From an uncultured archaeon (GTDB lineage Archaea; Aenigmatarchaeota; Aenigmatarchaeia; Aenigmatarchaeales; Aenigmatarchaeaceae), in NCBI GenBank assembly GCA_964348065.1, contig CAYGBE010000214.1, positions 66,572 through 130,571 on the forward strand: a DNA stretch of 64,000 bases. The letters run 5' to 3'. The translations under genes and the position numbers were made by a program. How positions within the stretch are numbered: position 1 is the stretch's first letter; each line of letters opens with the position of its first letter. The notes under the pieces were generated by a model, which worked only from the letters and a program-made list of their open reading frames with translations, was not told the origin of the DNA and ran no database searches. Shown here piece by piece: positions 8,646 to 50,432 of the stretch.

Positions 8646-8658
8646 CTAAGGTGAAAAA

Positions 8659-9120: not shown

Positions 9121-9128
9121 TGTTTTAA

Positions 9129-10391: not shown

Positions 10392-10401
10392 TAAAAATGG
10401 G

Positions 10402-10427: not shown

Positions 10428-10441
10428 AAAACAGTAAACAA

Positions 10442-11392: not shown

Positions 11393-11592
11393 TTAAAAAT
11401 CACCTTTTATTTCTTATCATAAAATTGTAAGCCGTATATATATAGATTTAGGTTTATGGAGAAATATATTGTTTACACTACGAAAAATTTACAATTTAGA
11501 AAGGATATTATCTAAATAATGATGATTCTATTAACTATTATAAAAAATAGAAAAAACTAGAACTGAAAAAAGGAAATCAATGGGTTAGTTGA

Positions 11593-12672: not shown

Positions 12673-12777
12673 GATTTCACTGATATAAAATTGTTAAGTA
12701 CGTATTTATAATTGTTGGTCAAATTACCACTGGTGTTGGCCTAGACCTGGTCCTGAAGAAGAAGTTGATCTTTCAAC

Positions 12778-13656: not shown

Positions 13657-13684
13657 AAAAATTATTAGATTTTGGTAAATAAAT

Positions 13685-14629
13685 CTATGGTACTATTTTA
13701 ACGTTAACTTCTCCTGTTGAATAATAATCATAATCAATTGATGCTGTTATAAAATACGTTCTCTCAGGAATACCTTCAGGTAAGCTACGTGTTTTAATAC
13801 CAATACATCTTACTTCAAGTGATTTTTTATTTATTATAGGAATATCATCATTATTTCTGAAGGTACTTGAATCGCCTACGCGTGAAAAATATGGACATCT
13901 TGCACTACTCAAATCAAACTCAGAAGGAAATGTTATTGTAAATGTTTCGCTCAAAATTTCACTTAATAAGCCAGTTCCTTTGTTTTCAACTGTCACATAA
14001 ACTGGCAAAGGATAACCAGTATCTTTTACAGGCAAACTTGTTCCAAAATCAAAATAAATTTTTAGAGGCCCTCTTCCAACGTTTATAGTAGGTTTAAAGG
14101 ATCGTGCTGTTCCTGCTCTTTGCAATTCTTCTAAATGAGCTTCACTAATTACAAGAACATCAATTTCAGTTGTTGCGTTATAAGGAAAATCAAATTTAAA
14201 TCTTATAGGACAGGTTAAACTTATAGCTGCAATTTCCTCTGCTGAAGGAGCTTTAAAAGTCCATATAACTAATCTTGTTTCTTGGGGGAAAAAATCACCA
14301 CCTGGAAAAACTGCAGATGTTCCGATGGTATAAGCCCCTGTTATGGGGGGTTCTCCTTCTATAGGATCACACAAACCAGTGTCATAAAGATTATAATCTA
14401 CAGGAACCTTTATGAATTCATCTTGATTTAAAAGTTCAAAAAAAACTGAAAACTCATCATTTACACGAACAGTTGTTGAAGGTAAAACAGTTACATTAGT
14501 TATTGAAATTACATCAGATGGTAATTCAACAACCGTGGGTCCTTGACTAGCAAATATATTAAGAAATGGTATTCTTGAACAACCTGAAACTAATAAAATT
14601 AATATTAAACTTAAAAACAGTTTTTTCAT
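13685..14629 (-). CDS. secreted lipobox protein, same module family (paralog D)
   Basis: Signal plus lipobox (LLVSGC). Landmarks: FFELLNQDEF, FDFPYNATTEIDVLVISEAHLEELQRAGT, GRGPLKIYF, VENKGTGLL, LEVRCIGI, ASIDYDYYSTGEVNVKI. Confidence 0.55.
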   Translation of the reverse strand: MKKLFLSLILILLVSGCSRIPFLNIFASQGPTVVELPSDVISITNVTVLPSTTVRVNDEFSVFFELLNQDEFIKVPVDYNLYDTGLCDPIEGEPPITGAYTIGTSAVFPGGDFFPQETRLVIWTFKAPSAEEIAAISLTCPIRFKFDFPYNATTEIDVLVISEAHLEELQRAGTARSFKPTINVGRGPLKIYFDFGTSLPVKDTGYPLPVYVTVENKGTGLLSEILSETFTITFPSEFDLSSARCPYFSRVGDSSTFRNNDDIPIINKKSLEVRCIGIKTRSLPEGIPERTYFITASIDYDYYSTGEVNVKIVP

Positions 14630-14667
14630 GTTATCATTTTAATATTCTATTTTTAAACTTAAAGGTT

Positions 14668-21588: not shown

Positions 21589-22152
21589 ATGTGTATGAAA
21601 CTTACAAGAAAATTTTATTCAAGAAACACAAAAACAGTTGCAAAAGAATTATTAGGAAAAATTCTAATTAATGGAAAATGTAAAGGAAAAATAGTTGAAA
21701 CTGAAGCCTATTTAGGAAAAAATGATCCTGGATCTGCTGGTTGCAGAAAAATTAAAAATATTCCTAAAGCATTGTTGAAACCGCCGGGACATGCTTTTGT
21801 TTATTTTACTTATGGAAATCATTGGATGTTTAATGTTGTTACTGAAAAAGAAGGTGTGCCAGGAGCTGTTTTAATAAGGGCTGTAGAACCTTTAAGTGGA
21901 ATTGAAATAATGAAAAGAAGAAGAAAAATAAAAGATATTAAGAGTCTTACTAACGGACCTGGTAAATTAACAAAAGCTTTTGGTATTGATAAAAAACATA
22001 ATGAATTAGATTTAACAAAAGGTAATCTGTTTTTAGAAAATTCTAATGAAAAATTTAAAATTGTTACAACAACTAGAATTGGTCTTTCTAAAGGTCAGGA
22101 AAAATTATTAAGATTTTATATCAAAAATAATGAATTTGTTTCAAAAAAATAA
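21589..22152 (+). CDS. mpg: DNA-3-methyladenine glycosylase (MPG/AAG family)
   Basis: FYSRNTKTVAKELLGKIL, VETEAYLGKNDPGSAG, PGHAFVYFTYGNHWMFNVV, AVLIRAVEP and NGPGKLTKAFGI are classic MPG-family motifs. Confidence 0.85.
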   Translation: MCMKLTRKFYSRNTKTVAKELLGKILINGKCKGKIVETEAYLGKNDPGSAGCRKIKNIPKALLKPPGHAFVYFTYGNHWMFNVVTEKEGVPGAVLIRAVEPLSGIEIMKRRRKIKDIKSLTNGPGKLTKAFGIDKKHNELDLTKGNLFLENSNEKFKIVTTTRIGLSKGQEKLLRFYIKNNEFVSKK

Positions 22153-25007: not shown

Positions 25008-25838
25008 ATGGCTTTAATAGATTACTTTACCCCAATGAAAATAATAGAAGCCATATTAGTAATTATAGTGGCATATGCGATTTCAAAACTGTTTGAAAGA
25101 ATTCTTATTAAACCTCTAGAGAAAATGGGTAAAAAAAGAAGTGTTTTAATACCATTGAAAAGGCTAATATCAATAATAATATACATAATTGCACTTATTC
25201 TGATTCTTTTGATTTTCAATGTTAATATAACAGCTGCTATTGCTGGTTTAGGCGTCGGGGCAATAATAATAGGTTTTGGTTTACAAGATATAGTTTCAAA
25301 TTGGATTGCGGGGGTAATAATAACTACTGGAAGGATTTATGCTATTGATGATGTTATTAAGATAGGTGATATAACAGGTATTGTGAAAGATGTAAATCTT
25401 AGATCAACCATACTTACAACCTATGATAGAAATGATGTTATTATTCCCAATTCTACAATTATAAAAGAAAAAGTAATAAATCTAACCAGTGGAAAAAATG
25501 AATCTGTATCTTCAATTGTTTTTCTTATAGATTATACTTCCAGCATAAAAGAAGCCAAAAAAATAATAGAGAATATACTAAAAAAAGATGAAAACGTAGT
25601 AGTTGATGAAAAAAGGAAAAGAGAAATAAGATTTGTTGTAAGAAGCAAAGAATGGACAACAGAAATGGAAATCTTATTTTGGATAAATAAACCTAAAAAC
25701 GAAGAATTCATTAAATCAAGAATTACAGAAGCTATTAAAAAACAATTTGAAAAAGAAAATATATTACCACCAATTCCAGGATTCTTAAGAAAGAATTATT
25801 TAGAATCTAAAATAAAATCTAGAAAAAAAAGAAAATAG
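25008..25838 (+). CDS. mscS: small-conductance mechanosensitive channel (MscS family)
   Basis: 3 TM helices, then GLQDIVSNWIAGVIITTGRIYAIDDVIKIGDITGIVKDVNLRSTILTTYDRNDVIIPNS, the MscS pore-helix/beta-domain signature. Confidence 0.8.
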   Translation: MALIDYFTPMKIIEAILVIIVAYAISKLFERILIKPLEKMGKKRSVLIPLKRLISIIIYIIALILILLIFNVNITAAIAGLGVGAIIIGFGLQDIVSNWIAGVIITTGRIYAIDDVIKIGDITGIVKDVNLRSTILTTYDRNDVIIPNSTIIKEKVINLTSGKNESVSSIVFLIDYTSSIKEAKKIIENILKKDENVVVDEKRKREIRFVVRSKEWTTEMEILFWINKPKNEEFIKSRITEAIKKQFEKENILPPIPGFLRKNYLESKIKSRKKRK

Positions 25839-25913
25839 CCTAATTATCAAAAAACTTATAAAAATTCAATTAACTTTAAAAAAGTCTATTAAGTATAGTT
25901 TCTTGGTGTTTTA

Positions 25914-26198
25914 GTGGGTATGATTAAAGAATTTATGAATTTTATGAGAAAGCAAAATGTTGTAGCAGTTGCAATAGGTTTAGTAATAGGTTTTGCAGCA
26001 AAAACTTTGATAGATGCACTGGTAGCAGATTTAATAAGTCCTTTGTACACTCCATATTTAGGGTTAGGCACTGAAGCAACAGTAACAATAGGTTTATCAG
26101 TCTTTAAAATCGGTCATTTTATAGAAGCTTTAATCAGTTTTATAGTGATTTTATTTGTAGCATTCATGATAGGAAAGAGCATGGGAAAAAAGTTATAA
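25914..26198 (+). CDS. mscL: large-conductance mechanosensitive channel (MscL-like)
   Basis: MIKEFMNFMRKQNVVAVAIGLVIGFAAKTLIDALVADLISP matches the MscL N-terminus/TM1 pattern, and a second TM follows. The track start is GTG 25914; ATG at 25920 is equally plausible. Confidence 0.65.
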   Translation: MGMIKEFMNFMRKQNVVAVAIGLVIGFAAKTLIDALVADLISPLYTPYLGLGTEATVTIGLSVFKIGHFIEALISFIVILFVAFMIGKSMGKKL

Positions 26199-26294: not shown

Positions 26295-27935
26295 ATGACT
26301 AATGGACAAGCTCAGATGGGAGGACAGCCAATATTGGTTCTACCTGAAGGAACTTTGAGAACTTTAGGTAAAGGCGCTCAACATACTAACATAGCTGCAG
26401 CAAAAGCTGTTGCAGATGCTGTAAGAACAACTTTAGGTCCTAAGGGTATGGACAAAATGTTGGTTGATCGTCTAGGAGATATTGTAATAACAAATGATGG
26501 TGTAACTATTCTAGAAGAAATGCAAATAGAACACCCTGCTGCAAAAATGCTTGTAGAAGTTGCAAAAACGCAAAATGAAGAAGTTGGAGATGGGACAACA
26601 ACTGCAGCTGTTTTAGCAGGAGAATTGTTAAAAAAAGCAGAAGATCTTTTAGATCAAAACATACACCCAACAGTTATTACAAGAGGTTACAAACTTGCAA
26701 GAGAAAGATCATTAAAAGTTCTTGACAAAATCTCTGAAACAATAGAAGTTGATGATATGGAAGATTTAGTAAAAATAGCAATAACATCAATGACAGGAAA
26801 AAGTGCAGAAAGAGCTTCAGAGCATTTAGCAAAAGTTGTTGTAGAAGCAGTTAGAACTGTTTTAGAAAACAAAGAAGTTGACAAAGAAAATATTAAACTC
26901 GAGAAAAAACATGGTGGTTCAGCAGAAGATACAGAGTTAATAAAAGGTGTAATAATTGATAAAGAAGTTGTTCACCCAGCAATGCCTAAAAAATTAAAAT
27001 ATGCAAAAATTGCTTTGTTAGACTCTTCTTTAGAAATCGAAAAAACAGAAACGGATGCACAAATACAAATAACATCTCCAGATCAATTGCAAAAATTCTT
27101 AGAACAGGAAGAAAAGATATTAAAAGACATGGTTAACAAAGTTGCTTTGTCAGGATGCAATGTTTTATTCTGTCAAAAAGGAATAGATGATGTAGCTCAG
27201 CATTACTTAGCCAAAAAAGGCATTTTAACAGCTAGAAGAGTTAAGAAATCTGACATGGAAAAATTGTCAAGAGCAACTGGCGGAAATATAGTTTCAAATA
27301 TCTCAGATTTATCTGAAGATGATCTGGGAGGAGCAGGAGTTGTTGAAGAAAAGAAAATTTCTGGAGAAGAAATGATATTTGTTAGAGACTGTAAAAATCC
27401 AAAAGCAGTTTCAATATTAATCAGAGCTGGAACAGAACACGTTGTTGACGAAGTAGAAAGAGCAATTGAAGATGCAATTGGAGCAGTTGGTTCAGCCTTA
27501 GAAATTGGTAAAATAGTTGCTGGTGGTGGAGCACCAGAAGAAGCTGTTGCAAAGGATTTAAGAGAATTTGCTCAAAGTTATTCTGGGAGAGAACAACTAG
27601 CAATTTTAGCTTTTGCAGATGCAATGGAAATAATACCAAGAACATTAGCAGAAAATGCTGGATTAGACCCAATAGACATGTTAGTTGAACTAAGATCTGC
27701 ACATGAAGACGAAAAGAATACTCATGGAATAGATGTTTCTTTAGGAAAAATAGTTAACATGAAAGCAAAGGGTGTTATTGAACCATTGAAAATAAAAACA
27801 CAAGCAATAAAATCTGCTGCAGAAGCTTCTGAAATGATACTAAGAATAGATGACATAATATCAGCAGGAAAACTTGAGAAAGGTGGAGCACCTCCAATGC
27901 CTCCAGGCATGCCAGGTGGTATGGGAGGATACTAA
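26295..27935 (+). CDS. ths: thermosome subunit (group II chaperonin)
   Basis: [47 protein letters not shown] and a GGM-type tail [11 protein letters not shown]. Confidence 0.95.
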
Positions 27936-28005
27936 TCTCCCCATTTTTTCTTTTTCTAAACTTTTATATACTGGTTTTTACACAATTTACTTAGGAGGTT
28001 AATAT

Positions 28006-28455
28006 ATGAAAGGAATATCAACAATATTGGCAATGATTTTGATTGTTATTATAGTTGTGGCATTGATAGGTCTAACTTATACCTTCGCAGTTGGATTGTT
28101 CGGCACAGCAACAGGTGGTGCTACTGAACAAACAGCAACTGTTACAGAAAGATTACAAAAAAGTGGTACTATTGTTTCATCATCTTGTGATAAGAATATA
28201 GTATCTGAACAAAGAAACTTTACAGTAACAATTAAAAACACGGGAACATTACCAATAAAGGCTAATGAAATCGCATTTTTCCAAGATGACGTAAGAGTAA
28301 CTGATTTTGATAAACCACTTACAGATCTTCTAGCAGGTGCACTTGAAACATATGAACTTGTAAACTCTACAGAAGCTGATGATGCAAGTCATATAATAAA
28401 ACTTTCAGTACCAGCAGGTGAAGTTACCTATTCATCAACTTGTTCATCATCTTAA
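28006..28455 (+). CDS. archaeal type IV pilin (class III signal peptide)
   Basis: MKG/ISTILAMILIVIIVVALIGLTYTF N-terminus (prepilin-peptidase site after G, hydrophobic helix). GGAGGT SD. Small beta-rich C-domain. Confidence 0.75.
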   Translation: MKGISTILAMILIVIIVVALIGLTYTFAVGLFGTATGGATEQTATVTERLQKSGTIVSSSCDKNIVSEQRNFTVTIKNTGTLPIKANEIAFFQDDVRVTDFDKPLTDLLAGALETYELVNSTEADDASHIIKLSVPAGEVTYSSTCSSS

Positions 28456-28497
28456 TAAAGAACATTTATATATAGTAGCTACAGCCAAACTATAGTT

Positions 28498-29028
28498 ATG
28501 CCAGAAGAAGATGTAAGTTATGAAATAATACCAGTAACACCTATCAAAAAGCTGCAGGAAAGAATAGAAAGAATAGAATCAACAGGAACCTCGCCACAAT
28601 TGCAGAATTTGATAAATCAGATAATAGAATTAATAAAAAATAATCAGAAAATTGTAAATGATGTTATTCAGGCAAATGTAGAGCTAAAAAATGAACTTTC
28701 TAGATTGCCTTCAAAGATTGATGATCTGTTAGCTACTATAAATAATTTTATTTCTTTAGTAGAGGCTGCTGCAAGCGAAGAAGTAGCACCAGCTACACAG
28801 CCTCAAGTTCAACAACCTAGTCCTGATGTTTTTAAGCCAATAATTGAGGAATTAAAGAAAATTTCTGATCAGAACAAAAATCTCGTGGAAAGCAACAAAA
28901 CTGTTCTTGAAGAATTAAAGAAAGCAGATAGGAGAGCTAAAGCCAGAGGAACACCAGTCTCAGCATTATTATCTACTTATCCCCTAAGAAGGGATTTGAA
29001 AAAAGACATAAGAAAAGTTGAGCAGTAA
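28498..29028 (+). CDS. hypothetical coiled-coil protein embedded in the pilin array
   Basis: 176 aa with no TM or signal and heptad-like Q/N/E/L-rich helices. The stop overlaps the next pilin start (TAATG). Confidence 0.45.
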   Translation: MPEEDVSYEIIPVTPIKKLQERIERIESTGTSPQLQNLINQIIELIKNNQKIVNDVIQANVELKNELSRLPSKIDDLLATINNFISLVEAAASEEVAPATQPQVQQPSPDVFKPIIEELKKISDQNKNLVESNKTVLEELKKADRRAKARGTPVSALLSTYPLRRDLKKDIRKVEQ

Positions 29029-29462
29029 TGAAAGGTGTAAGTGCAATAATTGCAATAATTCTAATATTAATGATAGTTGTGGCTTTGGCTGCTCTAACAT
29101 ACACTTGGTTTACTGGAATATTTGGAAGCTTAACTACAAGCGCTTCTAATGCAACAACAACAGCCACAACAGCACTAGGAATGAAATTTGAAATAGAAAG
29201 GGCAAAATTTTATGATACACCATATAATCATGTTAATGCTACTATCAGAAACAAAGGAACTCTAGATATTGACCCAAGCAAATTTGGAATTTATATTGAT
29301 GGTAGCCTTTCTCCTGAATATACTTATCCCTATAGCAAAATATCTCCAGCAGATAGCATAGATATATTAATTAATAACACAACCTCAGCAGCATGTTCAA
29401 ACAAAGTATTAAAAATAACTATTGAAACTGGTCTTGAAGACTATAGAACAATTACTTGTTGA
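29028..29462 (+). CDS. archaeal type IV pilin (class III signal peptide)
   Basis: MKG/VSAIIAIILILMIVVALAALTYTWF. Stop is TGA immediately followed by TAG. Confidence 0.75.
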   Translation: MKGVSAIIAIILILMIVVALAALTYTWFTGIFGSLTTSASNATTTATTALGMKFEIERAKFYDTPYNHVNATIRNKGTLDIDPSKFGIYIDGSLSPEYTYPYSKISPADSIDILINNTTSAACSNKVLKITIETGLEDYRTITC

Positions 29463-29467
29463 TAGAA

Positions 29468-29902
29468 GTGAAAGGTGTAAGTGCAATAATTGCAATAATT
29501 CTAATAATAATGATAGTTGTGGCTTTGGCTGCTCTAGCTTATCCATGGATTGTTGAGATGTTTGGTATTTTAGTTGGAACTACAAAAAGCTCAACAGATA
29601 CCTCAACCAATGTTATGGGAACTGAATTTAAAATAGAAGTAGCAAAAAATATTACAGGTCTTAGTAATTGTTGTAATGTATCTGTTACTATAAAAAATAT
29701 AGGAACGAGCATAATAGGCCTGACAAAAATAGCTGCTTACGTAGATTATGAGAAACAAACCATATACAATCAAATAAATTTAGGAAATTTGGCTTCTGAT
29801 AATGTAGTAACATTTAATATTTCTGCAAATGAAGATCCAAAAGGCAAAAAATTAAAAATAGTGACTAATATTGGCATAGAAAAAACAACGACAATTACTT
29901 AA
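29468..29902 (+). CDS. archaeal type IV pilin (class III signal; GTG start preferred over track ATG 29456)
   Basis: From GTG 29468 the first 70 nt are 67/70 identical to the start of the preceding pilin gene, giving (M)KG/VSAIIAIILIIMIVVALAALAYPW. The ATG at 29456 would add an atypical MLIE prefix. Confidence 0.7.
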   Translation: MKGVSAIIAIILIIMIVVALAALAYPWIVEMFGILVGTTKSSTDTSTNVMGTEFKIEVAKNITGLSNCCNVSVTIKNIGTSIIGLTKIAAYVDYEKQTIYNQINLGNLASDNVVTFNISANEDPKGKKLKIVTNIGIEKTTTIT

Positions 29903-29925
29903 TAAAATAAAAACAATTAAGTATC

Positions 29926-30438
29926 ATGAAAGGACAATCAGAAATATTGGTTTTTGTTCTTCTTTTTTTATTAAGCGTTGGACTATTTACAGTAGCTGTC
30001 TTTTGGGGCAAAGATATTTTTCAGCAAAATGTTGATATAACAAAAGTTTCTGCAGCAGAAGAGTTTATGAAAGAAATTGATTATGCTATTCAAAGTTTAA
30101 TAAAATTTGGTGGGTATTGGGAAGAAGATTATAAAGTAGATGGGCCAATAACATTAGTTGATAGTAAAACTATTGAAGTTAGAACAGTTATTCCTTCTGG
30201 AATGCCAATACCAGATTATTGGGTTAATATATCTTCTGATTCCTCTTATTATATAAGAGAAATGCTGGATGGAGATGTTCTTAGAGTTCAATTGGTTTAT
30301 CCTGAAAATGAATATAAAGTTGAGTTTTTTACTGAAGGTCCAACCTTAGCAAAACCAAAAAAAGTTAGAATCGAAAAAAATTCTACAACTATTGAAAACA
30401 ATAAAGGAACAATCAAAATAAGAGTAACCTTTATATAA
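29926..30438 (+). CDS. pilin-like protein (class III signal)
   Basis: MKG/QSEILVFVLLFLLSVGLFTVAVFW N-terminus. Confidence 0.6.
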   Translation: MKGQSEILVFVLLFLLSVGLFTVAVFWGKDIFQQNVDITKVSAAEEFMKEIDYAIQSLIKFGGYWEEDYKVDGPITLVDSKTIEVRTVIPSGMPIPDYWVNISSDSSYYIREMLDGDVLRVQLVYPENEYKVEFFTEGPTLAKPKKVRIEKNSTTIENNKGTIKIRVTFI

Positions 30439-30446
30439 TATTTTTT

Positions 30447-30863
30447 ATGAAAGGACAGTATCTTACTGTTGAGTACATACTTTTTTTCATAATTGGAATT
30501 GTTATGGTAATTTCTGTTTATTTCATATTTTCAAACATAAATAAATTGTCTGAAAGAGGTACATTAAAATCCCAACTTGAAGCTGTGGGAGAAAAAATAA
30601 GAGGAACTATTGTAAATATATTAGAAGTTTCCATTTCAACAGAAAGTGAAATAAGTTATAATTTGTCTATACCTTCAAGATTATCAACATGTGTATACAC
30701 AATAGAAGTTAACGATGATTTGTATCTAAATTGCACTCATGATGTTAGTATTGGTGTTACTTTAAGCTTGTATAATCTTAATATTACAACAGAAAATATT
30801 ATATATAGTACAAAGGGTCGTGTTGAAATAGATGCTTATTATAATGAGGTTCGATTAAGATGA
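30447..30863 (+). CDS. pilin-like protein (class III signal)
   Basis: MKG/QYLTVEYILFFIIGIVMVISVYFIF N-terminus. The stop overlaps the ATPase start (ATGA). Confidence 0.6.
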   Translation: MKGQYLTVEYILFFIIGIVMVISVYFIFSNINKLSERGTLKSQLEAVGEKIRGTIVNILEVSISTESEISYNLSIPSRLSTCVYTIEVNDDLYLNCTHDVSIGVTLSLYNLNITTENIIYSTKGRVEIDAYYNEVRLR

Positions 30864-32680
30864 AGAAGAAAACAAGAACCATAAAACTTAAAGGTAAATT
30901 AAAATTAAGTAGGGTTTTTCGAAAAGCTGTTAGAGGTTATAGAATTCTTAGAGCAAAGATGTTAATAAAACCTGGAATAAAAATGGGGAAAAAAGGAATT
31001 TCAAGAGGAGTTTCAAGAGGGTCTCCTCGTATAGAAGGTCCTATAGTATTAGGTGGTGGAGCTGCTACTCTTCCTGTAAAGATTAGTGAAATAAAGGCTG
31101 AGAAATTTATAATTGAAGAAGGAGAAGAAACTGAAGGAATTCCAATAATAAGTGATGTTGAACCAATGACAATAGAAGGTCCTGGAATCATTTTAAAGGA
31201 TATAAATGTTTTTTACGATCTTATAAAGTATGACTCTAAGGTTTTTGCATCTGTGAACATAAAGTGGTCTGATGCTCATTCTTCTTTAATTTATCAAGTT
31301 TTTGAACCGAAATTAACACGTGAGGAAAGGAATCTGTTGAACAAAATAAAAACAATGCTCATAGAAAAACTAGATGTTGACTTTACAACATTAAGAAAAG
31401 GTGAAGCCAGAAATTTTTTGGTTAAAAGATTTGAAGAAATGTTATCATCATTATCACTTGATGTTTCTGAAAATAAGAAAAAGGAGTTCTTATATTATAT
31501 TGAAAGAGACTTTATAGGTCTAGGAAAAATAGAACCCTTAATGAAGGATCCTAATTTAGAAGACATATCTTGTGATGGTGTAGGAGTCCCATTGTATGTA
31601 TACCATAGAAATCCTGTAATAGGAAGTGTTAAAACAAATATATTCTTTGAAACAGGTGAAGAACTTGATATTTTTGTAAATAAACTTTCACAAAGATGTG
31701 GAAAGAGTATTTCAGTTGCTCAACCACTTACTGGTGGAACTTTACCAGATGGTTCTAGAATACAAGCAACTTTAGGAACTGATATAGCAAGAAAAGGAAG
31801 TAATTTTACTATTAGAAAGTTTAGTGAAAGGCCTTTAACACCTGTAAATTTATTAAATCTTAAAACACTTAATACTAAAATTGCTGCATATTTATGGTTT
31901 TGTGTAGAATATGGTAGGAGTATTTTAATTACTGGAGGTGTTGCTACAGGAAAAACAACTCTTCTAAATGCTATGTCTCTATTCATTAAACCAGAACTAA
32001 AAATTGTATCAATAGAAGATACGGCTGAACTGGTTCTTCCACACCCTCATTGGGTTCCTAGTGTTGCTAGACTACCAATGGCAGAAATAGGAAGGAAAAA
32101 AGTAGGAGAAGTAGATCTTTTTGATTTATTAAAAGAATCATTAAGACAAAGACCAGATTACTTAATAGTAGGAGAGGTTAGAGGAAAAGAAGCTTATGTT
32201 TTATTTCAGCAAATAGCCACTGGTCATAGCTCTTTATCAACAATACACGCAGACTCTATGGAAAGATTAATAGATAGATTAACAACACCACCAATTAGTC
32301 TTCCAGCAAATCTTATAGAAGCCTTAGATATAATTATTTTCCTGGTTAGAATAAAATATGGCCAAACATACGTAAGAAGAATAAGAAGTATTTTTGAAAT
32401 ACTTGGTTTTGACAAAAAAAAGAACTTTCCTATTGTAAATGAAGTGTTTAAATGGAATCCGACAACTGACAGCTATGAAGAGGTAAATCCTTCTGTTGTT
32501 TTAAAAAGAATTTCTCAGCAATTTGGAATCAAACAAGAATATTTGCAACATGAAATATCTGATAGAATAAAGGTTTTAAAATGGATGGTTGAAAAAAATA
32601 TAGAAGATTATAGAGACGTAGCAAAAATTTCAAAACTCTATTATACAAGATCAGAAGAATTGTTAGAAGCTATAACATAG
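30860..32680 (+). CDS. type IV pilus/archaellum-family assembly ATPase (FlaI/GspE/VirB11 superfamily)
   Basis: Walker A GGVATGKTTLLNAM, Walker B/Asp box KIVSIEDTAEL, and RQRPDYLIVGEVRGKEA, HSSLSTIHA. Has a ~100-aa Lys/Arg/Gly-rich N-terminal extension, so the true start may be internal. Confidence 0.85.
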   Translation: MKKKTRTIKLKGKLKLSRVFRKAVRGYRILRAKMLIKPGIKMGKKGISRGVSRGSPRIEGPIVLGGGAATLPVKISEIKAEKFIIEEGEETEGIPIISDVEPMTIEGPGIILKDINVFYDLIKYDSKVFASVNIKWSDAHSSLIYQVFEPKLTREERNLLNKIKTMLIEKLDVDFTTLRKGEARNFLVKRFEEMLSSLSLDVSENKKKEFLYYIERDFIGLGKIEPLMKDPNLEDISCDGVGVPLYVYHRNPVIGSVKTNIFFETGEELDIFVNKLSQRCGKSISVAQPLTGGTLPDGSRIQATLGTDIARKGSNFTIRKFSERPLTPVNLLNLKTLNTKIAAYLWFCVEYGRSILITGGVATGKTTLLNAMSLFIKPELKIVSIEDTAELVLPHPHWVPSVARLPMAEIGRKKVGEVDLFDLLKESLRQRPDYLIVGEVRGKEAYVLFQQIATGHSSLSTIHADSMERLIDRLTTPPISLPANLIEALDIIIFLVRIKYGQTYVRRIRSIFEILGFDKKKNFPIVNEVFKWNPTTDSYEEVNPSVVLKRISQQFGIKQEYLQHEISDRIKVLKWMVEKNIEDYRDVAKISKLYYTRSEELLEAIT

Positions 32681-32688
32681 ATGATTTC

Positions 32689-33570
32689 ATGACTATCTGG
32701 AAAATACTCAAAGACCTATCATTTAAATTCTTCAAACACAGCTTAGATCCTTTTGTTGACCTATTTGAAAGCATAAAACCTGATTTATTAAAGGCTGATA
32801 TAGGTCTAACTTTATTAGAATATGTTTATGTAATGTTTTTCTCAGTTCTTTTGTTCTTTGTTATAGAATTTCCTATTGTTACAATAATAACAAGTTTTCT
32901 TTTACAAGACATATTATTAGCATTTTTGTTTTCATTTACTTTGAATATTGTTATTACTCTTATTGTTTTCTTTATTTTTTACACGTATCCTAGCATGATT
33001 GCAACAAAAAGAAAAAGAGATATTGAGTCTGCCTTACCATTTGCAACAACTTACATGGCAACAGTGGCAAATTCAGGAGCTCCGCCTGTAACAATGTTTA
33101 AAGTTATTTCACAATTTGGAGAATATGGTGAAGTTTCTAAGGAAATGAGAAAAATTTATAGGGATATAGAGGTGTTTGGCATGGATCTGATAGGCGCTTT
33201 AAGAAAAACTGCTAATAGAACACCGTCTGAAGAATTAAAAGAATTGTTATGGGGATTGGACACTGTTTTAACAAGTGGTGGTAATCTTAGTGATTTTTTA
33301 CATGAAAAATCTAGGCTTTTTATAGCAGAGTATGGAAGAAGATTACAACAATACTCTAGAACTTTGTCTATTTTAATAGAGATTTACTTGACTTTAATCT
33401 TGGTAGGATCTGTATTTTTTGTAATTATAACTGCCTTAATGTCATTATTGGGTGGGGGAGGAATGAGTAGTTATTTGTCGTTTATACAGTTTTTAGTTAT
33501 TTTTATAGTTTTACCATTTGTGTCTGTTGGTTTTATAGTTTTAATAAAATCCATAGCTCCAGCAGCGTGA
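32689..33570 (+). CDS. pilus platform membrane protein, FlaJ/TadC-type (T2SS-F domain), half 1
   Basis: ALPFATTYMATVANSGAPPVTMFKVIS...GMDLIGALRKTANRTPSEELKELLWGLDTVLTSGGNLSDFL, flanked by TM helices. Confidence 0.75.
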   Translation: MTIWKILKDLSFKFFKHSLDPFVDLFESIKPDLLKADIGLTLLEYVYVMFFSVLLFFVIEFPIVTIITSFLLQDILLAFLFSFTLNIVITLIVFFIFYTYPSMIATKRKRDIESALPFATTYMATVANSGAPPVTMFKVISQFGEYGEVSKEMRKIYRDIEVFGMDLIGALRKTANRTPSEELKELLWGLDTVLTSGGNLSDFLHEKSRLFIAEYGRRLQQYSRTLSILIEIYLTLILVGSVFFVIITALMSLLGGGGMSSYLSFIQFLVIFIVLPFVSVGFIVLIKSIAPAA

Positions 33571-33574
33571 TAAA

Positions 33575-34516
33575 ATGAAAAAAAAGGAAAAAAAATTCAA
33601 ATTTAAAATAAAATTCATACCAATAATAATAGCAGCAGTATTAGTTTTAGTGAGCATGTTTTTCTATGAAAATATTGGCCTAATGGGAAATCTTATTCTT
33701 TTAGCAGTTGTAGTAGGAGTTGTTCCTTATGCATTTTTATCGTATTTTGAATACCAAAAAATAAAATCAATGGAAGATCAACTGCCCTTGTTTTTGTTAG
33801 ACCTTTCTGAAGGTCAAAAAATAGGAATGACATTACCAGAAGCATTAAAACAAGTAGTAAAAACTGATTATGGAAAATTAACAGAAGAAATTAAAAAAAT
33901 TAATTATCAGTTATCTTGGGGTACGCCCACACAAGAAGTTATGAATAATTTTGCTCTTAGAACAAAAAAATCTAACTTAATAGGAAGGGTAGTTAGAATC
34001 ATAAATGAAGCTTATAGTTCTGGGGGTGATATTGCTAGAACAATGGAAGCTACAGCATCTGATATAACTGCAATAAAAGAGGCTGAAAAAGAAAGAAGAG
34101 CTGTTACATTTCAACACATGATGATAATGTATGCTATTTATTTCATATTTATTGGAATAGTTATTGGTCTTTCTCAAACTTTAATACCATTAATGGAACT
34201 AGACGTTGAATCAAGTGAAATAACAGGCGAAATGATGACTTTTAGTGACCCTTGTGAAATTTGTGTAAATAATCCAGATATTTATTGCATAAATTGTTCA
34301 GTTTTTTCAGTTGTTTGCCAAATGTTTGGAATTGAAAAAAGTTGTTATTATTATGCACTATTTCTTTTAATGGCTATAGTTCAAGGTATATTTTCTGGAT
34401 TAGTAGCAGGACAAATTGGAGAGGGGTCTGTAACTGCTGGTCTAAAACATAGCTCAATAATGACAATATCTGGTTTTGGTATAATATTATTCTTGCTAAA
34501 AGCTGGAGTGATTTAA
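33575..34516 (+). CDS. pilus platform membrane protein, FlaJ/TadC-type, half 2 (with Cys-rich loop)
   Basis: QLPLFLLDLSEGQKIGMTLPEALKQV...WGTPTQEVMNNFALRT...SSGGDIARTME plus TM helices. Extra loop is DPCEICVNNPDIYCINCSVFSVVCQMFGIEKSC. Confidence 0.7.
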   Translation: MKKKEKKFKFKIKFIPIIIAAVLVLVSMFFYENIGLMGNLILLAVVVGVVPYAFLSYFEYQKIKSMEDQLPLFLLDLSEGQKIGMTLPEALKQVVKTDYGKLTEEIKKINYQLSWGTPTQEVMNNFALRTKKSNLIGRVVRIINEAYSSGGDIARTMEATASDITAIKEAEKERRAVTFQHMMIMYAIYFIFIGIVIGLSQTLIPLMELDVESSEITGEMMTFSDPCEICVNNPDIYCINCSVFSVVCQMFGIEKSCYYYALFLLMAIVQGIFSGLVAGQIGEGSVTAGLKHSSIMTISGFGIILFLLKAGVI

Positions 34517-35547
34517 TGCAAGGGCAAACAAGAATAGAATTTATTTTTGCTGTTATAATATTTACACTAATAATTTTTCAAATTGTAACTCAAATAAATA
34601 ATACTTTTTCTAGCATCAATAAAGATTATGAAATCGACAGCCTAAAAGTACGGGCTTTAAACACGCTTATAACTCTTGTAGAAACAGGAGATGTGGAAAA
34701 ACACTATAAAGTTCCTATTCCAGTCGATGTAATGTTGGTTAATGATGTATCAGGCAGTATGGATGATGGTTGTGTTTGTGATAATGTAGACGCTTGTACT
34801 AATTGTGTTGGTCCTTGTGGTATATGTGATGCAAAAAATGCTTCAAAAATCTTTGTAGATGAGTTGAATTCTACAAATGATCGATCTGGGCTTGTTGCAT
34901 TCAATGCTTCAGCTCATGTTCTTCAAAGTTTAACATATAATAAACAAGATGTTAAAGACGCCATAGATGCTTTGAGAACAAGTAGTAGCACTGCAATAGG
35001 TGATGGTATTGATAATGCAACAGAAGAATTAATGAATAATGGTAGGTCTAATGCAGAGTGGGTACAAATTTTATTAACTGATGGGCAACACAACAGAGGT
35101 CAAGAACCTGAACCTGCAGCACAGGAAGCTGCAAACAACAACATAGTAATATATACTGTTGGACTTGGTGATGAAAGCAATTTTAATGTAACTTTATTAG
35201 GAATAATAGCTTCTATGACTGGTGGAAAATATTATCATGTTCCAGACAGTAGTCAATTAGTAGAAATATACGAAGAAATAGCTTTTGAAATAAAATCTGA
35301 AAAAATAGCGGTTGGATTAATAGCAGAAAAACCCTATAGGATTTCGGAAATAAAAATAGGAGATATAAGTCAAGATTGTGATATTTTGGATATTTTTGAA
35401 CTTGAAACTTATAGATTAAGGGTCTATAATTCAACAGATTTATTATTATTTTGTGGAACCGAAACCTTAAGACCCCCAAAGGTAGTAGTTAGCAAGAAGG
35501 TTTTTATTGGAAATAATTTAGGAAATGTAACATTGGAGTTGTGGTAA
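34516..35547 (+). CDS. pilin-like von Willebrand factor A (vWA) domain protein
   Basis: Class III-like N-terminus MQG/QTRIEFIFAVIIFTLIIF (Glu at +5). MIDAS motif DVSGSM...TAIGDG...LLTDGQHN. 6-Cys insertion directly after DxSxS. Confidence 0.75.
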   Translation: MQGQTRIEFIFAVIIFTLIIFQIVTQINNTFSSINKDYEIDSLKVRALNTLITLVETGDVEKHYKVPIPVDVMLVNDVSGSMDDGCVCDNVDACTNCVGPCGICDAKNASKIFVDELNSTNDRSGLVAFNASAHVLQSLTYNKQDVKDAIDALRTSSSTAIGDGIDNATEELMNNGRSNAEWVQILLTDGQHNRGQEPEPAAQEAANNNIVIYTVGLGDESNFNVTLLGIIASMTGGKYYHVPDSSQLVEIYEEIAFEIKSEKIAVGLIAEKPYRISEIKIGDISQDCDILDIFELETYRLRVYNSTDLLLFCGTETLRPPKVVVSKKVFIGNNLGNVTLELW

Positions 35548-35548
35548 A

Positions 35549-36757
35549 GTGAAGGGTTTTATTTATTTGTTAGAAATATCAATTGCATTAATATTAATTT
35601 TAGTGGTTTTAGGAACTGTTTCTAGTTACGAAGTAAAAGAAAGCTGGGAAAGAACAGATTTAATTGGAATAGCTGATAATATGGTGAGATTGATAAAAAA
35701 CGAGCATATTTTAGATATTTTAAGTGGCAATTTAAGCTTGATTGAAACTTTAATTCCCCCAAATGTTGATTTTGGGTTAAAAGTTAAAGCTACTCCCAAA
35801 CAAAACATAAGTGTTGGTTGTGTTGATGGAACAAGTTTTAGTTATGTAAACGGACTTTTAACAGATGCTTTTGTCAATAATTATTGGATAAATTTTAGTG
35901 TTGGACAATTTGACATAGAAACCTTGAATTATATTCCCTTATATTATGATGTTATTGTATTTGTCAATTATACAGGATATAATAGTAGAAAATCTAATAT
36001 TACAGATTATTTAGATAATGGTGGCGTTATAATAGGAATAAACGCAACTGAAAATACAGCAAATACTGATTTTATGGACATTTTTGGTTTAAGTTCTATT
36101 GTTTCTAGTGTTGGTAATTTTCATTTTACAGAGTATGGGCCAGAACAAGATGAAATTGAAAAATATTTCTTAGGTTTAGGTTTTGATATAATTACTGATT
36201 TTACTATAGATAGTAAAAAATGGGGAAATTGGTATATTTGGGAAGAAACTAGAACAGTAAACATTACATCTTTTAAAACAGTTGATATAGAAAGCAAAAG
36301 ACCTAGTGAAACAGAGCTTACAAACATACCAGAAGGTGGTTTTTTCACTTTAGAAAACCCCATTGATAACACAAACTATACATTCAAAGTTAAAAAAGTT
36401 TTTTGGAGTGATTTTGTAATAATTCAAGCAATGAATACGTCTTTTATTTTTCAAGATTTTTCTGAAGAAGGCGGGGCACCTTCTAAAGACGTAATAGGAA
36501 AATTTAATATTATAGCCAAATCTGGTGATGATGCAGAAATGACTTCTAACAACACTGCAATCTGGATTTCAGATTTTCCAGAAAGTGATGAATATAGAGT
36601 CTTAGTAAAGGCTGCTATTGCTTCAAGAGTAAAAGAATGGACATTAAAAGAACCTGATTTAACAAAAGAATACGTTGCTGTTTCCTCATTCTTTCCTTTA
36701 TGTTGTGATATGCCTGAAACAGTTGAATTGGCCTTTTATTTGTGGTATAAAATATGA
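35549..36757 (+). CDS. large pilin-like protein (class III signal, 402 aa)
   Basis: GTG start. (M)KG/FIYLLEISIALILILVVLGTV N-terminus followed by a ~370-aa N-glycosylation-sequon-rich domain. Confidence 0.55.
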   Translation: MKGFIYLLEISIALILILVVLGTVSSYEVKESWERTDLIGIADNMVRLIKNEHILDILSGNLSLIETLIPPNVDFGLKVKATPKQNISVGCVDGTSFSYVNGLLTDAFVNNYWINFSVGQFDIETLNYIPLYYDVIVFVNYTGYNSRKSNITDYLDNGGVIIGINATENTANTDFMDIFGLSSIVSSVGNFHFTEYGPEQDEIEKYFLGLGFDIITDFTIDSKKWGNWYIWEETRTVNITSFKTVDIESKRPSETELTNIPEGGFFTLENPIDNTNYTFKVKKVFWSDFVIIQAMNTSFIFQDFSEEGGAPSKDVIGKFNIIAKSGDDAEMTSNNTAIWISDFPESDEYRVLVKAAIASRVKEWTLKEPDLTKEYVAVSSFFPLCCDMPETVELAFYLWYKI

Positions 36758-37398
36758 AATTCTGCTTTTTATGTGGCAAAAAAACTGAAAATCTGATAAA
36801 AGGATATTGTGAAGAATGCTACAATAAAAAGTTCAAATTAATAGAAATTCCTGAAGAAATCAATGTTACAATATGTTCTAAATGTAATAAAATAAAGGAA
36901 AAAAACAAGTGGAAAGACATAGAAATTGACGGTTTCCTAAGAAATAAAATAAAAATTCTTGGAAAAAATGTTAAAATAAGATTTGAGAAAAATGATGTTT
37001 TAAGAATTTATGTCAAAGGTTTTTTAGAAGGTTCTAAAACCCTTAAAGAAGAGACTTATGAATTAAAACTGAAAATAAATAAAGAAGTTTGTCTTAATTG
37101 CTCTAGAAAATATGGAGATTATCATGAAGCTGTATTGCAAATAAGAGGAAATTTAACAAATGACGATTTTAATTCAATAGATGACCTTGTTTTAATGAAA
37201 AAAGGGTTTTATAAAATAAAAGAAGTTAAAGGTGGTTATGATCTTCTCATAGGTAGCAAAGCTTTAAGTGAAAAAATCACAGATTTCTTAAGAAAAAAAT
37301 ATAAAACTGAAATAAAAAAGAGTTATAAGCTTGTTACAAGCAAAGATGGTAAAGATATTTATAGGAATATCATTTTAATAAAAATACTAAGTGATTAA
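36754..37398 (+). CDS. NMD3-family protein (archaeal homolog of the 60S export/biogenesis adaptor)
   Basis: Paired zinc motifs CFLCG...CEECY, CSKCNK, CLNCSRKYGDYHEAVLQIRG at the N-terminus, as in NMD3 N-domains. Start overlaps the previous stop (ATGA). Confidence 0.6.
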   Translation: MKFCFLCGKKTENLIKGYCEECYNKKFKLIEIPEEINVTICSKCNKIKEKNKWKDIEIDGFLRNKIKILGKNVKIRFEKNDVLRIYVKGFLEGSKTLKEETYELKLKINKEVCLNCSRKYGDYHEAVLQIRGNLTNDDFNSIDDLVLMKKGFYKIKEVKGGYDLLIGSKALSEKITDFLRKKYKTEIKKSYKLVTSKDGKDIYRNIILIKILSD

Positions 37399-37710
37399 AT
37401 GGCCAAAGGAACAGAAGAAGAGATAATAAGAGTAAGAGTACCAAGAAATGATGAAACAATAGGTCTTGTAACAGCTCTACTTGGAGGAGGAAGAGTAGAA
37501 GCTAAGTGTGACGACGGTTTTACAAGAATTTGCAGGATTCCTGGCAAAATAAAAAGGAGATTGTGGATTAAACCTGGAAATTTAATCTTAGTTAAGCCCT
37601 GGAGCGTTCAAAAAGAAGAAAGGGCAGATGTTCTTTGGCTATACAGCAGAGCTCAGGCCCATTGGCTTAAGAGAAAAGGCTTTGTAAAAAATATTTCTCC
37701 AGAAGTCTAA
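37399..37710 (+). CDS. eif1a: translation initiation factor aIF-1A
   Basis: IGLVTALLGGGRVEAKCDDGFTRICRIPGKIKRRLWIKPGNLILVKPW...ADVLWLY is the eIF1A OB-fold signature. Confidence 0.9.
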   Translation: MAKGTEEEIIRVRVPRNDETIGLVTALLGGGRVEAKCDDGFTRICRIPGKIKRRLWIKPGNLILVKPWSVQKEERADVLWLYSRAQAHWLKRKGFVKNISPEV

Positions 37711-41100: not shown

Positions 41101-42729
41101 ATGCTTATGTCAAATACTGGATTAACTGCAGAAATTCTGTCAAAAAATCTTAAGGCAATATCTGTAGCCGAATTTTTCGAAAAGAATAGGCACTTGCTAG
41201 GTTATGAGAACACCACTAAGGCAATGCTTACAGTTGTAAAGGAATTAGTAGATAATTCTATAGATGCTTGTGAAGAAGCAGCAATTTTGCCAAATATTAA
41301 GGTTTCTGTAAAGCAATCAGGAGAAAATAAATTTATAATAAAGGTTGAAGACAATGGGCCAGGAATTGTAGAAGATAAGCTTCCCTTTGCTTTTGGAAAG
41401 CTTTTATATGGAAGTAAATTTCACAGACTTAGACAATCAAGGGGAACTCAAGGCATAGGTGTAAGTGGAGCTATATTATATTCACAATTAACAAGTGGAA
41501 AACCAATAAAAATAACATCAAGCATTGGAAAAAGATATATTAGCGATATAGAGCTTATGATTGATGTTACTAGAAATGAACCTCATGTAATTTCTAGTAA
41601 AAGAGAAAAAAATCCTGAAAAATGGCATGGTGTTAAAGTTGAAATGGAAATTGAAGGAAGATATATTGAAAAAGGCCAATCAATACCAGAATATCTTAAA
41701 GAAACTGCAATAATGAACCCTTATACAAGAATAATTTATCAAGGACCCAATGGTAAGGTTACATTTCCAAGAGCTGTGCACAAGTTACCAAGAAGACCTA
41801 AAGAAATAAAACCTCATCCTTATGGTGTAGAATTAGGAATTTTAAGAAGAATGGTTGAAACAACCAAAGCAAAAAACATTGTTAGCTTTCTAAAAGCAGA
41901 TTTTTCAAGAGTAGGAAAAACATCTGCGTTGCAAATGTGCAAATTAGCTAAAATTAATCCTAAAAAAAAGCCCCGCTCATTAGATTATAATGATGTTACA
42001 AGATTGCACAAGGCAATGCAAACAGTAAAACTTGTTTCTCCGCCTACTAATTGTTTATCTCAATTAGGAGAGGAAACAATAACAAAAGGTTTAGAAAAAG
42101 AAATAAAAGGAGAACATTTTGTAGCAATTACAAGATCTCCATCTGTTTACAAAGGAAGACCCTTTGCTGTTGAAGTTGGAATGGCTTATGGTGGAGAATT
42201 AAATCCCAATAAAACAGGTGATCTTCTTAGATTTGCTAATAAGGTTCCATTATTGTATCACCAAGGAGATTGTGCAATTACACAAGCAGTTAAAGAAGTT
42301 GATTGGAGAAGATATGGCTTACGACAATCTTCTGGTTCTTTACCAACATGACCTTTATTAATTTTAGTTCATTTTGCATCAGTTTGGGTTCCTTTTACTT
42401 CAGAAGGAAAACAAGCAATAGCAAGTTATCCTGACATAACAAAAGAAGTTAAACTAGCTTTGCAAGATGCAGGAAGAAAACTTAAGAAATACATAACTGG
42501 AAAAAGAAGAAGACATGAAATACAAATGAGAAGAAATCTATTTGAAAGATATATTCCTGAAGCAGCATTAGCAATTTCAAAAATATCTGATGTTCATAAA
42601 GTAAAAATTGAACATGGTTTAGAAAAAATGCTTAAAAAAGGCTTAAAAGAAGTTGATGGAGAAGCTGAAGAAGAGGTAGAATTAAATGAAGAGGAAACAG
42701 AAAAGATTAGAAGCAAAGAAAAATCTTAA
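41101..42729 (+). CDS. top6B: DNA topoisomerase VI subunit B, interrupted by one in-frame TGA (42349-42351)
   Basis: Bergerat ATPase motifs (ELVDNSIDA, EDNGPGI, GTQGIGVSGA). After ...SSGSLPT-TGA the same frame continues PLLILVHFASVWVPFTSEGKQAIASYPDITKEVKLALQDAGRKLKKY..., the conserved Top6B transducer segment. Total 543 codons, normal for Top6B. Confidence 0.8.
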
Positions 42730-49811: not shown

Positions 49812-50432
49812 TCACAACCACTCATCTTCCCATTTTCTGAATTCTCTTTCACTAATATTTGCTTTAGGTTTTTTCTTTATTCTAGTTTCTCCGTATTTTT
49901 TTCTCAAATAAAGACCGTATATTACACCAAAAGCTAAGCCAAACAAATGAGCTGCGTATGCAATATTGCTAATTGGTACAAAAAAACCTAAAAGATCAAA
50001 AATAGCCCATAGAGATACAGCAACTACTAGTGGCATTGGAACTCCTAAACCCATGTAAACAGTCATTCTAGGTCTTAGCACAGCTAATGTTCCAAAAATT
50101 CCATAAATTGCTCCAGAAGCTCCTAGTGAGGCATTATAAAATATAAAACTTCCTATTCCGCCTATTATTCCTGAAATAAAGAAAACGAGCAAAAATTTCT
50201 TTCCACCTATTATTTTTTCTAAAACAGAGCCAAACAAAGCTAAGGCAAACATATTATAAAATATATGCATAAAATCTCCGTGAAGAAAAATATAAGTTAT
50301 AATTGTCCATGGTTTAAATAAAAAATTTGAAGAAATTAAAAATTCTTCTGTTATCCAAGGAAAAGTAAGTTGTAAAATAAAAACTATTACACAAATTATA
50401 ACAAGTTTAAATGCATACCAATTATATTTCAT
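49812..50432 (-). CDS. rhomboid-family intramembrane serine protease
   Basis: HGDFMHIFYNM, GASGAIYGIFG (catalytic Ser) and AHLFGLAFG (catalytic His), with 6 TM helices. Confidence 0.85.
   Translation of the reverse strand: MKYNWYAFKLVIICVIVFILQLTFPWITEEFLISSNFLFKPWTIITYIFLHGDFMHIFYNMFALALFGSVLEKIIGGKKFLLVFFISGIIGGIGSFIFYNASLGASGAIYGIFGTLAVLRPRMTVYMGLGVPMPLVVAVSLWAIFDLLGFFVPISNIAYAAHLFGLAFGVIYGLYLRKKYGETRIKKKPKANISEREFRKWEDEWL

Follow-up and report, generated by a model that had tools for sequence, protein, structure and literature searches.

A 64-kb stretch of DNA from an uncultured archaeon (contig CAYGBE010000214.1), the whole of which is hereafter called the window, raises the question of which kind of type IV filament is encoded by the eleven genes at positions 28006-36757, and what a pilin-like protein with a von Willebrand factor type A (vWA) domain does in it. 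The genes encode five small pilins (pil1 to pil5), a coiled-coil protein, an assembly ATPase, two platform proteins (platN and platC), the vWA protein (here X), and a 402-aa protein (p402). An initial annotation, made from the sequence alone, had read them as co-oriented and tightly packed, and as an operon for a type IV filament whose subunits have class III signals and whose machinery comprises a secretion ATPase and a split platform; all eleven were recovered at their coordinates on the + strand, and the family matches agree with that reading. By its sequence relationships, the locus is a vertically inherited type IV pilus (T4P) operon of an Aenigmatarchaeota-like DPANN archaeon, of the type known as 'Locus 1'. 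Sequence comparison and a structure model show X itself to be a modular minor pilin: a vWA domain has been inserted into a conserved short minor pilin, and the insert differs among orthologous loci.

Modular minor pilin X

The gene and its central motif are located as follows.

34516-35547, + strand: X, modular minor pilin, 343 aa, N-terminus MQG/QTRIEF; the vWA insert occupies nt 34711-35301
34744-34827, + strand: DxSxS of the metal ion-dependent adhesion site (MIDAS) and Cys-rich loop in X, from the homolog alignment

The vWA domain of X was identified with PF00092 (1e-22) at aa ~66-262. Its MIDAS residues D77, S79, S81, T159 and D189 are intact, and they are invariant in 10 full-length homologs, which bears out the earlier description of X as a pilin-like vWA protein with a MIDAS. 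In the AlphaFold2 model (pLDDT 89), an α1 helix (2-57) is followed by the vWA domain (70-259) and by a small β-rich C-terminal domain (262-342), and Foldseek searches with the vWA fold retrieved BatB, PTMP1 and other vWA structures with E-values of ~1e-13 to 1e-12. Directly after DxSxS, on the ligand-binding face of the domain, lies a Cys-rich loop with 7 Cys in the window copy; within it, the invariant residues are C86 and C101, whereas its length varies (2 to ~10 Cys). X contains 8 N-glycosylation sequons and 8 Cys and has an isoelectric point (pI) of 4.5, and p402 contains 10 sequons and has a pI of 4.4. The sequons, cysteines and acidic pI of the two proteins fit extracellular exposure.

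Outside the vWA domain, the full-length homologs of X (44-54% identity) share the N-terminus M-x-G-Q-T-R-I-E-F and a C-terminal block of ~85 aa ending in ..GN[IV]TLE[LM]W. These two parts form a scaffold: the N-terminal 58 aa and C-terminal 88 aa of X were aligned by hhalign with short orthologs of 149-174 aa at a probability of 99.9 and an E-value of 3e-34. The insertion point, between '..PPDW[DE]' and '[KR][IV]GL', separates α1 from the globular pilin domain. X thus combines the signal, the pilin module and the extra domain that define a modular type IV pilin in the sense of Raynaud et al. 2021, with the module inserted and not appended.

Module replacement and scaffold family

In the orthologous loci (designated L001 to L013 with other pilus loci examined), the slot occupied by X is filled in three ways. 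A vWA domain is present in the window, L005 and L010. In L006 and L007, which are the closest relatives of the window (ATPases 79-87% identical), the slot holds DUF2341 within a 471-aa protein whose N- and C-terminal blocks are the same as those of X. No module is present in L001, L002, and L011 to L013. Since the DUF2341 form nests within the vWA forms in the scaffold tree as well as in the ATPase tree, the vWA domain was probably replaced once, in the DUF2341 sub-lineage. X is a likely determinant of what the cell sticks to, because close relatives have swapped its vWA domain for another binding domain or have none; by analogy with bacterial modular pilins, X may be an exchangeable tip adhesin.

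A profile search with the short form of the scaffold resulted in 1179 cluster representatives in 1.84 billion proteins. Nearly all of the best 150 of these matches were 130-180 aa long, and the rare long forms among the 150 carried either a vWA or a DUF2341 domain as an insert or a LamG/ConA-like lectin domain at the C-terminus.

The Cys-loop vWA domain was also found in DPANN pilus loci on two class III scaffolds other than that of X, one of the MKG/F.. type (P0014, L008) and one of the PilA type (P0017). The window module is 44-50% identical to the modules of other carriers at ATPase identities of 34% as well as of 72%, and by this comparison the vWA module appears to be decoupled from the machine.

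Further arrangements were observed in related loci. The locus in L008 (GCA_964372485.1 contig, 791 kb; 7742-16567) is a different DPANN pilus operon with a 519-aa vWA protein on an MRHG/FVFSLD scaffold, a CBS-domain protein, a split platform and Epd-like GQ..LEY pilins; its ATPase is 34% identical to that of the window, and the Cys-loop vWA module is thus also present on an unrelated scaffold. LamG/Laminin_G_3 domains occur on class III proteins of related loci (L009, 8259-9314; P0324 and P0342): one is in the p402 position in L009, and others are C-terminal appendages of the X scaffold.

Metagenome contigs of the locus (runs X1-X4, 28006-36757) represent the window organism at ~5x depth, with more abundant relatives of 85-95% similarity co-occurring. 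The contigs of the relatives cover mainly the ATPase and platform genes, and the vWA and p402 genes much less; the contigs, of low depth and with many relatives present, gave no information on module polymorphism.

Pilins, class III signals and control elements

The remaining genes and the putative control elements of the locus are, in order:

27962-27970, + strand: promoter-like TTTTATATA upstream of pil1, 3' of the T-rich end of the thermosome gene, read from sequence
27994-27998, + strand: GGAGG Shine-Dalgarno sequence upstream of pil1, read from sequence
28006-28455, + strand: pil1, PilA/UpsA-like pilin, 149 aa, MKG/ISTILA, from profile matches
28465-28472, + strand: a further TATA-like box, TTTATATA, 25 nt upstream of the start codon (ATG) of the coiled-coil protein gene
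28498-29028, + strand: cytoplasmic coiled-coil protein, 176 aa, with no signal peptide and no transmembrane (TM) segment, from the ortholog alignment
29028-29462, + strand: pil2, PilA-like pilin, 144 aa, MKG/VSAIIA, from TIGR02537
29465-29902, + strand: pil3, PilA-like pilin, 145 aa, MKG/VSAIIA, from TIGR02537, start revised
29926-30438, + strand: pil4, conserved minor pilin, 170 aa, MKG/QSEILV, from orthologs, no Pfam family
30447-30863, + strand: pil5, conserved minor pilin, 138 aa, MKG/QYLTVEY, from orthologs
30860-32680, + strand: assembly ATPase, 606 aa, afGspE/FlaI-type core, from PF00437 and PDB matches
32689-33570, + strand: platN, N-terminal half of an ArlJ/PilC/TadC platform, one T2SSF domain
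33575-34516, + strand: platC, C-terminal half of the platform, one T2SSF domain
35549-36757, + strand: p402, 402 aa, MKG/FIYLLE, conserved family, stop overlapping the NMD3 start

The eleven open reading frames (ORFs) are separated by intergenic gaps of -7 to +42 nt, and several start codons overlap the stop of the preceding gene. The TATA-like box TTTTATATA and the GGAGG motif may serve as promoter and Shine-Dalgarno sequence of pil1, and TTTATATA marks a possible leaderless start of the main operon.

Seven proteins of the locus (pil1 to pil5, X and p402) start with a three-residue leader M-[KQ]-G followed by a hydrophobic helix. The class III pattern was matched eight times among the six-frame ORFs of at least 50 aa in the window, and since seven of the eight matches are inside the locus, chance clustering of MKG ORFs was rejected. 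The eighth match is a 153-aa ORF at 8659-9120 (MKA/WKIIVAGIIIAIIAQ) with further hydrophobic segments and no Pfam match. A FlaFind-like regular expression was passed by five of the seven candidates, pil5 failing at +2. The positions G-1, Q+1/F+1 and Glu are conserved across orthologs, so that the signals did not fail on conservation, one of the grounds on which the initial annotation could have fallen.

Class III-like starts were found in all five small pilins that had been noticed initially, with one correction. The start of pil3 is most likely GTG 29465 (MKG/VSA), two nt after the stop of pil2, and not TTG 29456, which gives pil3 the same MKG leader as the other pilins. The candidate major pilins, pil1 to pil3, are 144-149 aa long and have a β-rich globular domain with CARDB-like matches. 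pil1 matches the UpsA model at 36.6 bits and Arch_flagellin at 19.4 bits, both below cut-off, and its ortholog in L005 is 36% identical. pil2 (22.2) and pil3 (26) exceed the cut-off of 20 of TIGR02537, the archaellin/pilin N-terminal domain, and pil2 reaches 27.4 on Arch_flagellin, under the cut-off of 29.5. Owing to its own promoter-like element and strong Shine-Dalgarno sequence, pil1 is the best candidate and likely the major subunit, with pil2 and pil3 as its probable paralogs. Orthologs of pil4 occupy the same position in 8 loci (20-78% identity), and those of pil5 were likewise found in 8 loci (25-70% identity).

The coiled-coil protein, which matches only coiled-coil families, and these weakly, corresponds to the 'CCP' of DPANN Locus 1 (PMC11291902). 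Its orthologs in L001, L005, L009, L010, L011 and L013 are 26-71% identical, with a conserved N-terminal motif YEIIPvTPIkkLe.R.

Assembly ATPase and split platform

The ATPase matches PF00437 at 1.8e-31 (109.6 bits, cut-off 24.9). Its closest relative of solved structure is the non-archaellar afGspE of Archaeoglobus (2OAP; 379 bits, 40% identity, 4e-112), and Sulfolobus FlaI (SaFlaI) was matched at 278 bits and 36% identity. Among the NCBIfam models, FlaI ranked first and bindosome BasE second. The FlaI equivalog model NF058587 gave 418.1 bits for the window ATPase against a cut-off of 550; on the same model the non-archaellar afGspE gives 427.9 bits and the genuine SaFlaI 674.2 bits. The TadA model was matched at 159 bits and PilB3_C weakly. 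When placed in a tree together with afGspE, SaFlaI and an outgroup from bacteria, the DPANN ATPases grouped in a clade of their own (support 85/94).

The core is preceded by an N-terminal extension of ~130 aa, which is K/R/G-rich and of low complexity (MKKKTRTIKLKGKLKL...GRG-like; 30860-31250). Its length varies in orthologs, with ~230 aa in L001, and in L005 it is RGG-like. The extension could be the system-specific interaction region that is discussed for non-archaellar ATPases in PMC13705601.

platN and platC each contain one T2SSF domain (62.9 and 59.6 bits, cut-off 25.2). platN matches positions 7-248 of the 555 in the ArlJ profile, and platC matches positions ~182-446 and 255-431 of the ArlJ/UpsF profiles; the two genes correspond to the N-half and C-half of ArlJ/UpsF, respectively.

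p402

The p402 family has 74 members and no Pfam domain. Invariant in it are M1, G3, F4, E9 and a C-terminal CCDMPE motif. In the AlphaFold2 model (pLDDT 90.5), a helix at the N-terminus is combined with a flavodoxin-like α/β domain and with β-sandwich domains. Lengths of 527-693 aa occur among the homologs, with extra domains inserted near the conserved 'YFLGxGFD' block, and in L009 a LamG class III protein takes the place of p402. An enzymatic GATase-like role was rejected for now, no Cys-His-Glu-type invariant set being found among the conserved residues.

Conservation and genomic context

The nearest named genome is a metagenome-assembled genome of Candidatus Aenigmatarchaeota, with an ATPase 51% identical to that of the window. 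The order coiled-coil protein, PilA-like pilins in varying number, pil4, pil5, ATPase, platN, platC, X and p402, between thermosome and NMD3/eIF1A, is found in L001, L005, L010, L011 and L013, and in part in L002, L006, L007 and L012, which makes nine syntenic relatives altogether. L009 has the same operon architecture in a different neighbourhood. The pilin set that the initial annotation called unusually large is shared by all orthologous loci and does not exceed in size the published Epd or haloarchaeal sets (PMC4858521). Identity to the close relatives declines from the platform (82-87%) and the ATPase (72-87%) to p402 (56-68%), X (~49%) and pil1 (36%), a gradient that fits a conserved motor with fast-evolving exposed subunits.

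The p402 stop and the NMD3 start share an ATGA, and NMD3 is directly followed by eIF1A (36754-37710). As the p402/NMD3 junction is also kept in L005, L006, L007, L011 and others, the pilus operon may be co-transcribed with genes for translation and ribosome biogenesis, which would suggest constitutive expression. Upstream in the window are Mpg (21589-22152) and the thermosome gene (26295-27935). Because the operon has been kept beside housekeeping genes throughout the Aenigmatarchaeota-like lineage, it is probably central to the biology of that lineage.

Other features of the neighbourhood include adjoining genes for MscS-type and MscL-type mechanosensitive channels at 25008-26198, just upstream of the thermosome, the MscL position being kept in L005. 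Farther downstream, in the region 41101-42686, Topo VI B has only 416 aa versus 511-540 aa in relatives and is separated by a gap of ~335 nt from Topo VI A; the gene may be truncated, frameshifted or miscalled. The Topo VI B ortholog of L010 has 1030 aa with an intein (PF14890).

Proposed working and alternative explanations

Of the core components of archaeal type IV filaments (T4F) as given in PMC13705601, the locus contains a VirB11/GspE-type secretion ATPase, a polytopic PilC/TadC/ArlJ platform and class III-signal subunits. We consider it probable that it encodes a DPANN T4P of the Locus 1 type, with a PilA-like filament, a minor-pilin tip or initiation complex, and X attaching via its MIDAS. 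The sequences establish the gene content, the domain identities, the conserved signals, the synteny, the insert architecture of X and the module replacement; for the processing of the signals, the building of a filament, the place of X at its tip, its adhesive role and its ligand, we infer the following course. A prepilin peptidase encoded elsewhere would remove the three-residue leaders (M-K/Q-G), and a hexameric afGspE-like ATPase on a heterodimeric platform of two half-size PilC/TadC proteins would drive assembly of the filament from the PilA-like pilins. pil4, pil5, X and p402, the non-PilA class III proteins whose genes bracket the motor genes, would form an initiation or tip complex, as modelled on bacterial minor-pilin complexes. 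X would expose its vWA domain either at the tip of the filament or on the surface of the cell, where the MIDAS would bind a ligand through a metal ion, and this binding would mediate attachment to a host cell or other surface. The cytoplasmic coiled-coil protein may be a motor accessory or scaffold.

Several observations weigh against this proposal. X is without the K/R at -2 that is expected by the FlaFind-type rule, and three-residue leaders are the short extreme of class III signals. No prepilin peptidase was found among the multi-TM ORFs of the window, as the initial annotation had stated, nor in any of the related loci, and the sole membrane peptidase found in the window is a rhomboid (49812-50432); with the prepilin peptidase not in the window, the locus cannot be called complete, as it was at first. 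In the ATPase tree, which had no Epd, Aap, Ups or PilB references, the position of the DPANN clade relative to afGspE and FlaI is unsettled, and no named archaeal clade is assigned to it. The matches of p402 in Foldseek searches against the PDB were weak, namely non-catalytic domains of GH42 β-galactosidase (E 5e-4, TM-score 0.27) and flavodoxin-like domains. Among sequencing runs, only DNA metagenomes contain the locus sequence. Finally, the bulky X and p402 could stay membrane-anchored instead of entering a tip complex.

This last point leads to an alternative, by which the locus encodes a surface-display machine resembling the bindosome, that is, a short membrane-anchored pseudofilament; X and p402 would then be receptors or adhesins of the cell surface, retained through their N-terminal helices. 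Both are large and globular, which rules out packing within the body of a filament, BasE is the second-best NCBIfam match of the ATPase, and binding proteins with class III signals have been proposed to commonly functionalize archaeal T4F machineries (PMC13705601). However, the BasE match reaches 216 bits versus a cut-off of 1000, substrate-binding-protein domains are not present, and the operon includes three PilA/archaellin-type pilins, with a promoter-like element and a strong Shine-Dalgarno sequence, as is expected of a real filament. We therefore regard a display machine of this kind as unlikely.

It is improbable that X acts as a regulator or anchor, in the manner of the cytoplasmic ArnB of Sulfolobus or the proposed membrane anchor TadG. 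Makarova et al. connect vWA proteins with the control of T4P in archaea and mention TadG as a potential anchor (PMC4858521), and ArnAB (8S05) is among the sequence and fold matches of X, but the ArnB match is weak (29.7 bits). The class III-like helix of X, its sequons and cysteines, and the disulfide-type loop on the MIDAS face are extracellular features, the parts of X outside the vWA domain are homologous to a minor pilin, and the possible alternative modules of the slot, DUF2341 and LamG lectin-type, are domains for binding and not for regulation.

A reduced archaellum, i.e. a rotating motility filament, is disfavoured as highly improbable. In its favour, FlaI is the top NCBIfam model of the ATPase (418 bits), pil1 to pil3 give weak matches to Arch_flagellin, ArlF and ArlG, and archaella are reported from 167 Nanobdellati genomes (PMC13705601). 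However, the ArlF/ArlG matches score 22-29 bits where the cut-off is 110, the platform differs from ArlJ in being encoded by two genes, and subunits that carry adhesin modules suit attachment and not swimming. The locus is not that of an archaellum: its ATPase is below the FlaI cut-off, at the level of the non-archaellar afGspE, and neither within the locus nor in the subset of window ORFs that was scanned was a match to ArlH, ArlCDE, ArlX-type proteins or CheF obtained. In both respects this agrees with the initial annotation, for which an ATPase within ArlI would have spoken against a pilus and which had seen no archaellum accessory genes in the window.

As an extension of the T4P proposal, the set of pil4, pil5, X and p402 can tentatively be regarded as a plug-in adhesin holder. 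Hot spots after '..PPDW' in X and near 'YFLGxGFD' in p402 would take interchangeable Cys-loop vWA, DUF2341, LamG and other modules, these modules would be exchanged and diversified independently of the motor, and the module identity would set the host or surface to which the cell attaches. Such a holder, which we put forward as a possibility more doubtful than probable, would mean that archaea have arrived by convergence at an equivalent of the modular pilins of bacteria and of receptor-binding-protein swapping in phages.

Relation to known systems

Hamm et al. 2024 (PMC11291902) reported a Locus 1 T4P locus from cluster-2 DPANN lineages, Aenigmarchaeota among them, and proteomics of Ca. Nanohaloarchaeum antarcticus detected several of its proteins. 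The type of locus is thus known, since the gene set of the window matches Locus 1: Mpg, GroEL/thermosome, a coiled-coil protein, PilA/FlaF-like proteins, a CpaF-type ATPase and TadC are all in the window neighbourhood. In contrast, that paper mentions neither vWA, DUF2341 or other modular pilins, with no occurrence of 'von Willebrand' in the full text, nor the p402 family, and it likens the coiled-coil proteins to viral attachment proteins, whereas the coiled-coil protein of the window looks cytoplasmic.

X has a parallel in bacteria. The modular pilins of Streptococcus sanguinis with a vWA domain (PilB) and a lectin domain (PilC) are proven adhesins (PMC8179133). Like X, they combine a class III pilin module with a MIDAS vWA domain or, in the sister protein, with a lectin-type (LamG/ConA-like) module, a pair of module types that is met again on the archaeal scaffolds, and they are proposed to act as tip adhesins (PMC8179133, PMC9934059). 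The module of PilB and PilC is grafted C-terminally by a short loop, whereas that of X is inserted between α1 and the C-terminal pilin domain, and the Cys-rich loop after DxSxS is a feature of the X vWA domain. The X scaffold is part of an archaeal machinery and has no sequence relationship beyond vWA.

Among archaeal machines, the likeness is divided. System 2, or clade 2 of Makarova et al. (afGspE, Haloferax PilB-PilC; PMC4858521, PMC13705601), has in common with the window the closest solved ATPase, the N-terminal extension, the PilA/archaellin-type pilins, and additional minor pilins and adhesin-like proteins in the locus. It differs in that PMC13705601 gives a single platform gene, where the window has two (according to PMC4858521, many clade 2 loci have two), in that three window minor pilins carry Epd-like G/Q signals, and in the separate clade of the DPANN ATPases. 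With the Epd pili of Methanococcus (system 1) and with Tad, the window shares the two platform genes, minor pilins with Q at +1 and Glu near +5, and adhesin-like proteins in the locus, including DUF2341 proteins; TadG is a bacterial pseudopilin-like vWA protein. On the other hand, neither a short major pilin of the Epd/Flp type (~70 aa, arCOG06620-like, no globular domain) nor EppA was found in the locus, the ATPase scores only 159 bits on the TadA model, and it is unlike that of the Woesearchaeota locus L003 (35% identity), which lies beside GQAALEF pilins. DUF2341 is an insert in a small pilin in the X orthologs, and part of a large separate adhesin in Epd loci.

On sequence features, the machinery appears to mix system 2 (afGspE-like ATPase with N-terminal extension, PilA-type pilins) with system 1/Epd (two platform genes, G/Q..E minor pilins). 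Of the initial designation 'Tad/Epd-like', the split platform and the G/Q...E signals of three minor pilins can be retained; the ATPase nearer to afGspE, the system 2-type extension and the PilA-type pilins of ~145 aa, versus ~70 aa in Epd, cannot be accommodated by it.

Archaeal vWA proteins are treated only as regulators by Makarova et al. (PMC4858521). In the part of the literature covered by a non-exhaustive full-text search, no archaeal pilin with a vWA domain and no scaffold with exchangeable inserts were described. What is new in the window is the vWA modular pilin with exchangeable inserts in archaea, in a locus of known type.

Significance

The 'modular pilin' principle, documented so far in bacteria, is extended to archaea, with an insertion topology instead of a C-terminal graft. 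As the locus type is already known, the finding is useful rather than very surprising to a specialist. DPANN archaea have, to our knowledge, been cultivated only as cells attached to a host, and the host-recognition molecules are largely unknown. The domain-swapping X is a concrete and testable candidate for the determinant of host or surface specificity, and, if this is true, the identity of the module would set which host cell or surface the symbiont attaches to.

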